Shown here piece by piece: positions 4,265 through 4,546 of a stretch of DNA of 12,036 bases; the stretch's first letter is position 1; every line of letters begins with the position of its first letter. Where the stretch lies: IMG/VR virus record IMGVR_UViG_2734482777_000021; one strand, written 5' to 3'. The translations under genes and the position numbers were made by a program. This DNA comes from a virus. Taxonomy: Duplodnaviria; Heunggongvirae; Uroviricota; Caudoviricetes. Under the pieces are notes generated by a model that had not been told where the DNA came from, ran no database searches, and saw only the letters and a program-made list of their open reading frames with translations.

Positions 4265-4546
4265 ATGATTAAAGACAGCAAAGCGGAAGAACTGGAGGCT
4301 AAAGGGCTGTACCGGAGAGCAGCGGCACGTTGGGCTGATGTTATGTGGCTGGTGAGCACTGACAAGGAGCGCGAACAGGTGGCAAAGCGTCGCGCGGAAT
4401 GTATCCGTAAGGCAGCGCGCCAACCAGTCATACCGGATAATTTCGGAATACTGAAAGAGGCCATAAACCGCACACATACCGGGATGGGCTTACAGAAACC
4501 TGGCGGTGAGATGTTCAGGAACTACCCGAAAAAAAGGGATAATTGA
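4265..4546 (+). CDS. PerC-like small transcriptional regulator (putative)
   Basis: The N-terminal motif KAEELEAKGLYRRAAARWADVM resembles the conserved core of the PerC/Pch activator family as I recall it. GTGAGG SD lies 6 nt upstream of the ATG at 4265; the ORF track's 4253 start is a GTG inside the SD. Assignment needs an HMM check. Confidence 0.45.
   Translation: MIKDSKAEELEAKGLYRRAAARWADVMWLVSTDKEREQVAKRRAECIRKAARQPVIPDNFGILKEAINRTHTGMGLQKPGGEMFRNYPKKRDN

Follow-up and report, generated by a model that had tools for sequence, protein, structure and literature searches.

A PchE-type PerC regulator, optional cargo of a capsid-forming satellite of Escherichia coli

Introduction

The 12,036-nt stretch of viral DNA analyzed here (hereafter the window; IMG/VR record IMGVR_UViG_2734482777_000021) carries, between a single-stranded DNA-binding protein gene (ssb) and a capsid and packaging operon, a small gene resembling the perC and pch regulators of pathogenic E. 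coli. A sequence-only reading of this DNA had recognized a PerC/Pch-like N-terminal motif, had placed the gene on a mobile satellite, and had suggested that its product might activate the late operon of the satellite or genes of the host. Our comparisons, made at the level of sequence, identify the gene as a genuine full-length member of the PerC/Pch family and its carrier as a capsid-forming phage-inducible chromosomal island (cf-PICI), in which it occupies a slot of variable content. Its product probably acts on the host rather than on the late operon of the satellite.

Results

The window gene is a full-length member of the PerC/Pch family

The gene and its ribosome-binding site are positioned as follows:

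4255-4258, plus strand: GAGG Shine-Dalgarno sequence of perC, 6 nt before the ATG, seen by direct reading of the sequence
4265-4546, plus strand: perC/pchE-like gene, 282 bp, 93 aa, assigned by PF06069, phrog_994 and synteny with pchE

The open reading frame (ORF) extends from the ATG at 4265 to the TGA at 4544-4546. The mechanical ORF list had opened it at an upstream GTG (4253), yielding a protein of 97 aa; in RefSeq, a 100% identical 282-bp copy is annotated from the ATG (WP_000588637.1) under the name "PerC family transcriptional regulator", which is also given to copies of 96-100% identity to the window gene. The motif that had suggested the family, KAEELEAKGLYRRAAARWADVM, spans residues 6-27 of the protein, and the proposed resemblance was right: when the protein was searched with the Pfam PerC hidden Markov model (PF06069), the check that the sequence-only reading had proposed, the match was significant (E=2.6e-35; 121 bits, cut-off 22.6) and ran end to end, with residues 1-89 of the protein aligned to positions 1-89 of the 90 in the model. 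The PHROGs collection returned phrog_994 (E=2.3e-42). A search of 5.8 billion proteins recovered 129 relatives, with PF06069 present in 120/120 of those listed; among the matches listed, the named relatives were mostly called "PerC family transcriptional regulator". Homologues measured 87-109 aa. In an alignment of 31 family members, which takes in PerC of enteropathogenic E. coli (EPEC), a 104-aa Pch of enterohemorrhagic E. coli (EHEC) and PchE, all 13 invariant columns (D4, A7, L10, E11, G14, Y16, R17, R18, A19, A20, R22, W23 and C46) are kept in the window protein. The match lies far beyond chance expectation.

The gene is under purifying selection, with a pairwise ratio of nonsynonymous to synonymous substitution rates (dN/dS) of about 0.25-0.30 against four homologues, at large dS. 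The allele occurs at an identity of at least 95% in 32 of the 5,426 complete E. coli genomes. The fold predicted for the protein is a small all-helical, TPR-like bundle of the protein-interaction type, and no DNA-binding domain was among the top matches to this predicted fold. Close to the 3' end of the gene, a run of seven adenines (A7; 4529-4535, plus strand) is replaced in another allele (L089, P0001) by nine (A9), shifting the frame such that the tail ...KKRDN becomes ...KKKGIIDNGC and the protein 98 aa long. This A9 allele was found in 519 contigs and is the most widespread among the matches listed; the difference in the tail may be a simple slippage polymorphism.

The nearest characterized homologue is PchE

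PchE is encoded in E. coli O157:H7 Sakai by Sp7, an element also known as OI-51, CP-933C and EcCIEDL933, and the prototype of the cf-PICIs (PMC3378721; bioRxiv 10.1101/2022.09.08.507074). The gene order in Sp7 is primase, iterons, ECs1586, ssb, pchE (ECs1588), a homologue of the window's orf82, and the capsid gene. A database entry (P0102) of 54 aa raised the idea that PchE of O157 might be truncated; we rejected this, as ECs1588 of Sakai encodes 90 aa. The window protein shares 60% identity (73% positives) with PchE across 88 residues, as compared with 48% for EcCIMP1_025, the PerC protein of the classical PICI EcCIMP1, 51% for a 104-aa Pch of strain EDL933 and 45% for EPEC PerC. PchE is thus the nearest of the characterized homologues (59-60%, versus 48% for EcCIMP1_025, 47-51% for the 104-aa Pch and 44-45% for EPEC PerC), and perC lies between ssb and the capsid module, as pchE does in OI-51/Sp7. 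Based on this syntenic slot and the 60% identity, we take perC to be the positional orthologue of pchE and, accordingly, a "group 3" PerC homologue.

perC lies in an ssb-perC-orf82 unit of a capsid-forming satellite

The other features of the window, from left to right, are the following:

upstream of the primase gene: DUF4222 gene
1461-3587: DUF927 primase/helicase gene (Pfam)
3613-3763: replication origin of the satellite, between the primase gene and ssb, with iterons and an AT-rich spacer
3824-4249, plus strand: ssb, 141 aa (Pfam SSB, E=3.8e-16; TIGR00621, E=1e-16)
4592-4840, plus strand: orf82, encoding a conserved small protein (phrog_1957, E=1e-36), with an AGGAGG ribosome-binding site
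4850-4869: strong bidirectional intrinsic terminator, GGCCTGG-TAAAAT-CCAGGCC, followed by a T-run on either strand
4876-5382, minus strand: ORF168, AT-rich cargo gene of 168 aa (phrog_5789, E=1.4e-85)
5669-12036: HK97-type module encoding capsid protein, protease, portal, head closure, connector, HNH, TerS and TerL

The origin, typical of PICIs, contains four direct TAACCCGCAAAA-type iterons at a spacing of 21 nt (3689-3763); across the AT-rich spacer lie two more copies in inverted orientation (3613-3636). The same iterons separate the primase gene from ECs1586/ssb in Sakai Sp7. It forms the upstream boundary of a unit consisting of ssb, perC and orf82, in which perC directly follows ssb after a gap of 15 nt. 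orf82 is the last gene of this unit and, as judged by synteny, is usually kept with or without PerC. The hairpin at 4850-4869 closes both this unit and the convergent ORF168, and in sibling elements equivalent hairpins occur ahead of the conserved element that precedes the late operon. ORF168 forms a cassette, present in only some of the siblings, that is inserted between the terminator and the control region of the late operon; it has a GC content of 33-41%, and its product ends in a hydrophobic tail, ...IVGAGASALIGLL. A PADLOC scan for anti-phage defense yielded no match for PerC, orf82 or ORF168, and no Pfam family was matched by orf82 or ORF168. ORF168 could be an uncharacterized defense or exclusion gene; it belongs to the context of the perC unit and lies outside it.

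The proteins of the HK97-type module are 63-93% identical to those of Sp7/EcCIEDL933. Copies of the element at about 97% identity, present in complete E. coli genomes, carry an integrase gene (int) and helix-turn-helix regulators to the left; these genes lie outside the window and were seen only in those copies, in which no tail or lysis genes were found between int and the end of the element. With capsid-to-TerL genes, a DUF927 primase and an iteron origin in the window, and with int and the regulators present and tail and lysis genes lacking in the nearly identical copies, we assign the carrier to the cf-PICIs of E. coli, so that the earlier placement of the gene on a mobile satellite was correct. 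Induction by a helper phage and transfer with hijacked tails were shown for EcCIEDL933 only. In E. coli strain 10 (NZ_CP048330.1, locus L001), a near-identical cf-PICI resides inside the large-terminase gene of a resident HK97-like prophage, and the two halves of that gene remain as pseudogenes (2397-3425 and 18930-19673); the satellite therefore disrupts a packaging gene of a potential helper.

Sibling elements carry PerC, ProQ/FinO or no gene at all between ssb and orf82

We collected sibling loci by an exact 19-mer from the conserved element that precedes the capsid operon (described below). This set was not dereplicated, and contained 51 distinct upstream sequences among 83. The whole interval from ssb to the capsid gene was spanned in 68 loci, comprising 65 from IMG/VR together with the window, L001 and Sp7 (L004). 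The slot, which in the window corresponds to 4250-4590, was occupied in these loci as follows:

PerC: 43/68 loci
a gap of about 550-750 nt, with room for a 180-aa ProQ/FinO gene: 14/68 loci
nothing, ssb abutting orf82: 10/68 loci (for example L043, L066 and L060)
a deletion fusion of SSB and PerC: 1/68 loci

All four of the gap loci that were inspected (L040, L053, L058 and L108) encoded a 180-aa ProQ/FinO protein (Pfam, E=9e-25). perC is thus optional cargo in a cf-PICI slot that holds PerC, ProQ/FinO or nothing. The occurrence of PerC homologues on PICIs of E. coli has been on record since 2018 (PMC6092414), and PerC and ProQ were listed as PICI accessory genes in an independent paper (PMC13612085). 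Outside the slot, PerC and ProQ/FinO genes occur side by side in some E. coli genomes and in IncK2/Z plasmids.

Two rearranged siblings indicate frequent recombination around the slot. In L072, the N-terminus of SSB is joined in frame to the C-terminus of PerC (about -214 to -53 relative to the 19-mer), a deletion scar; in L080, a second copy of perC-orf82 occurs downstream of the conserved element, replacing the capsid gene. No association between PerC and ORF168 was obvious among the 68 sibling loci (both present in 4, ORF168 only in 6, PerC only in 39, neither in 19). A further PerC-carrying element was found in a 12,152-bp sequence reported as a circular "plasmid" in a single-cell assembly (NZ_CP148430.1, L121). 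This EcCIMP1-like PICI, with genes for an integrase, AntA/AntB, an Icd-like protein, a TOPRIM-DUF927 primase and PerC, is presumably the excised circular form of the island.

Characterized homologues affect host genes, and the window protein probably does so too

PchE was recognized as an OI-51 gene in 2011 (PMC3378721), and its effects have since been described in O157. When over-expressed, it repressed csgD, curli, biofilm formation, eae and lpfA1, strongly induced flhDC, fliC and motility, and raised ler about 2-fold; the natural expression of pchE was low and steady, dropping upon SOS induction (PMC6265319, PMC7369912). The O157 transcript has been mapped as a polycistronic ECs1586-ssb-pchE RNA (PMC7369912). 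Other family members act on the enterocyte effacement locus (LEE): EcCIMP1_025 represses LEE1, its authors proposing for it a role like that of the ANR (AraC negative regulator) proteins (PMC11773190), and group 1 Pch relieves silencing by H-NS, StpA, Hha and YdgT, with less H-NS bound at LEE1 both in vivo and in vitro (PMC4764244). Group 3 is reported to be dispensable for the expression of LEE (Iyoda and Watanabe 2004, as cited in PMC6265319; Porter 2005, as cited in PMC11773190). Cross-talk with the host thus has experimental precedent in PchE and EcCIMP1_025, because PchE acts on csgD, curli and flagella, and group 1 Pch on H-NS silencing; for the window protein it is suggested by analogy.

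The explanation we favor, and hold to be probable, is that the window gene encodes a small, all-helical PchE-type regulator, carried as optional cf-PICI cargo, that acts in trans on the host and does not serve to activate the late operon. perC would be co-expressed with the replication genes and, like pchE, show some basal expression; in the window, where ECs1586 is absent, its transcription probably either continues from the primase operon or begins within the origin region. The protein would then act in trans on genes of the host and on other horizontally acquired genes. It is probably not a sequence-specific helix-turn-helix activator; remodeling of H-NS/StpA/Hha silencing complexes through protein-protein interactions, by analogy with group 1 Pch, is more likely. 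Its outputs would be expected to resemble those of PchE, with csgD/curli and adhesins decreased, flhDC and flagella increased, and LEE-type targets affected. The sign and the targets of this particular allele are not predictable, because the homologues that were tested activate LEE1, repress it or leave it unchanged.

Of the other explanations, the one that survives best, although we regard it as unlikely, is that PerC is an ANR-like anti-activator that blocks AraC-family activators (and H-NS), with net repression of virulence and adhesion genes. The LEE1 repression by EcCIMP1_025 (48% identity) and the ANR-like role proposed for it agree with this, as do the mostly repressive effect of PchE on adhesins, the predicted small helical fold of the protein-interaction type, and a homologue (P0092) that its source named as ANR family. 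The NCBIfam ANR model (NF033650) also matches residues 6-52 of the window protein, but weakly (E=0.094; 12.6 bits against a cut-off of 32), which places the protein outside the ANR family, whereas the PerC model scores 121 bits. PchE also strongly induces flagellar genes and raises ler, which speaks against this explanation. The anti-activator explanation overlaps in any case with that of a trans-acting PchE-type regulator, differing from it mainly in the partner and the sign.

The conserved element upstream of the capsid operon is dissociated from PerC

The sequence-only reading had pointed to the region 5400-5668, upstream of the capsid gene, as a possible target of PerC. Two features were detected in this region:

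5439-5474, plus strand: conserved element TGTAAATTATTTGTTCGTGTTCTTTCGTGGTTGTTC with three TTGTTC-like repeats at 10-nt phasing, found by comparison with Sp7
5492-5519, plus strand: promoter-like site TTTACA-16-TATGTT, from a consensus scan in which the window scored no better overall than shuffled sequence

In comparison with the diverged Sp7, the region shows little conservation apart from a single 100% identical block, TTTTGTAAATTATTTGTTCGTG followed by TTGTTC-like repeats. The exact 19-mer of the element is carried by 83 elements besides the window and was found in 82 IMG/VR contigs; it normally follows directly after the terminator of the ssb unit. In each locus extending as far as the capsid gene, the rearranged L080 apart, it is situated 212-255 nt (for the most part 229-255) ahead of the capsid start, and the capsid proteins of these loci are 62-100% identical to that of the window. 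When up to 3 mismatches were allowed, the three-repeat pattern occurred once in the window, against a chance expectation of 0.01. A search of the window for TTGTTCNNNNTTGTTC with one mismatch gave no match, because the middle repeat is degenerate there. The promoter-like site follows shortly after the repeats and precedes the capsid gene (5669) by 150 nt. It is followed by a GC-rich leader (5520-5640) that contains two direct repeats, CTGCG(C/A)GATGCCG, 20 nt apart, and GCCGCC/GGCGGC complementarity; sibling elements have one of two unrelated leader types, that of the window or that of Sp7, downstream of the common conserved element. The leader is not a known RNA family, as no Rfam match was obtained across the whole window.

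The element, which consists of TGTAAATTATTTGTTCGTG and the TTGTTC repeats, also recurs elsewhere: 10-nt-phased TTGTTC repeats are present at the ends and in the int regulatory region of two cf-PICIs. Sp7 (L004) has them at its left and right ends as well as in the regulatory region near int, and the CEA106S element (L122) at both ends; the sites noted for the element in these loci are 24802, 26187-26222 (minus strand), 32445 and 40030 in L004, and 3657-3756, 11630 and 18751-18786 in L122. Since the TTGTTC repeats recur at att and int regions, Int or the Xis-like AlpA are the candidate binders, and the distribution suggests that the repeats are sites for one of these rather than for PerC. It further suggests that one DNA-binding protein, Int or AlpA, links excision with late-operon expression. 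In EcCIEDL933, alpA is needed for induction and transfer, and its over-expression promotes reproduction of the element, as reported in the cf-PICI papers; the same papers leave pchE unaddressed and report no role for it in the cf-PICI cycle.

These observations bear on a second alternative, in which PerC is the early-to-late switch of the satellite and activates the capsid and packaging operon through 5400-5668. perC does lie just upstream of the late operon and in the same orientation, it is probably co-expressed with the replication genes, the conserved repeats and a weak promoter-like site precede the capsid gene, and the silence of the cf-PICI papers on pchE leaves room for such a role. 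Furthermore, PerC follows a DUF927 primase and/or SSB in 19/32 species-level Enterobacterales loci. However, in 0/32 of these loci (30 in a second count) were capsid genes found, nor was the 19-mer found in any of them when up to 3 mismatches were allowed; PerC-bearing classical PICIs likewise lack both the capsid operon and the element. Conversely, 25/68 siblings without PerC retain the identical 19-mer and repeats as well as the capsid genes. Each thus occurs without the other, and the dissociation of PerC from the late-operon element runs both ways. The recurrence of the repeats at the ends and int regions, the dependence on alpA, and the predicted fold, which is not of a DNA-binding type, also speak against the switch. 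One consideration weighs on the other side, in that elements without PerC could use a PerC homologue from elsewhere in the genome. Overall, the switch appears improbable, and PerC is probably not a dedicated activator of the capsid and packaging operon. The suggestions that PerC turns on the late operon of its own element, and that 5400-5668 is its target, are thus both disfavored. These patterns suggest that PerC/PchE has no role in the satellite's own life cycle.

Discussion

The identification of the gene was correct, and the gene was already known and annotated: its family, its carriage by PICIs, its orthologue and part of the regulon of that orthologue have been published. Because pchE of OI-51 and PICI-borne PerC proteins are in the literature and the gene itself is annotated, the window adds only another allele. 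The broader significance lies in the carriers. cf-PICIs travel from strain to strain and even across genera, and their cargo includes small regulators able to rewire adhesion, motility and virulence programs of the host, which is relevant to the acquisition of regulatory traits by commensal and pathogenic E. coli; this has been pointed out before for pchE/OI-51 and for PerC homologues of PICIs.

An extension of the trans-acting role, which we consider doubtful in the extreme though not as remote as those that follow, would make the slot between ssb and orf82 a dedicated, exchangeable "host-reprogramming" position, filled by a PerC-type anti-silencer, by a ProQ/FinO RNA chaperone or by nothing, from which PerC would serve the satellite by lifting H-NS silencing of its AT-rich cargo or of prophage tail genes. 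If this were true, anti-silencing by PerC of ORF168, of the late control region or of tail genes in resident prophages, cryptic ones included, could help a satellite that has no tails of its own to find them.

It is very improbable that PerC is an accessory factor for replication or for the handling of single-stranded DNA, with "transcriptional regulator" a historical label. Its position immediately downstream of the origin and ssb, and behind the DUF927 primase and/or SSB in 19 of the 32 species-level loci, would fit such a factor; however, relatives occur beside perAB on plasmids and in lambdoid late regions where replication genes are not nearby, transcriptional effects have been measured for several family members, and sibling satellites without PerC have an intact replication module. 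Least probable of all is that perC is a decaying, non-functional passenger, as truncated alleles (the 54-aa "PchE" P0102, P0072 and P0080, among the matches listed), an often empty slot and a homopolymer that alters the C-terminal tail might suggest, since the gene in the window retains its full length, a good ribosome-binding site and all invariant residues, with a dN/dS of about 0.3 and an allele conserved at 95% or more in 32 complete genomes.

Comparison with known systems

PchE of Sp7/EcCIEDL933 and the window protein are alike in family, in size (90 versus 93 aa), in their ssb and orf82 neighbors and in the HK97-type capsid operon that follows, and the two satellites have their origin iterons in common, as well as the conserved element that precedes the capsid gene. 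They differ in 40% of their residues, mainly in helix 3 and the C-terminal third. ECs1586, the source of the upstream promoter of the mapped pchE transcript, is not in the window, whereas the window has the additional reverse ORF168 cassette downstream. The regulon described for PchE (csgD, flhDC, eae, lpfA1, stpA and ler) was obtained in an O157 background and mainly by over-expression.

EPEC PerC (BfpW, on the EAF plasmid) and the group 1 proteins PchA, PchB and PchC of EHEC lambdoid prophages belong to the same Pfam family and length class as the window protein, share the invariant N-terminal core D-x2-A-x2-LE-x2-G-x-YRRAA-x-RW ... C, and are likewise borne by mobile elements. Unlike it, they are activators of LEE1/ler, and their genes occupy other contexts: the perABC operon of a plasmid in the first case, and in the second a lambdoid prophage, between the lysis genes and the terminase gene. 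The ANR proteins (Aar-type), which are likewise small, helical and encoded by mobile elements of enterobacteria, resemble PerC weakly across the N-terminal 50 residues, but are shorter and do not have the C-terminal third of PerC. EcCIMP1_025, finally, is also a satellite-borne PerC of E. coli (48% identity), from an element with a DUF927-type primase; in contrast to perC of the window, it lies far from the primase gene, in the accessory end of an island that has no capsid genes, and its repression of a LEE1-lux fusion was shown in Citrobacter rodentium (PMC11773190).
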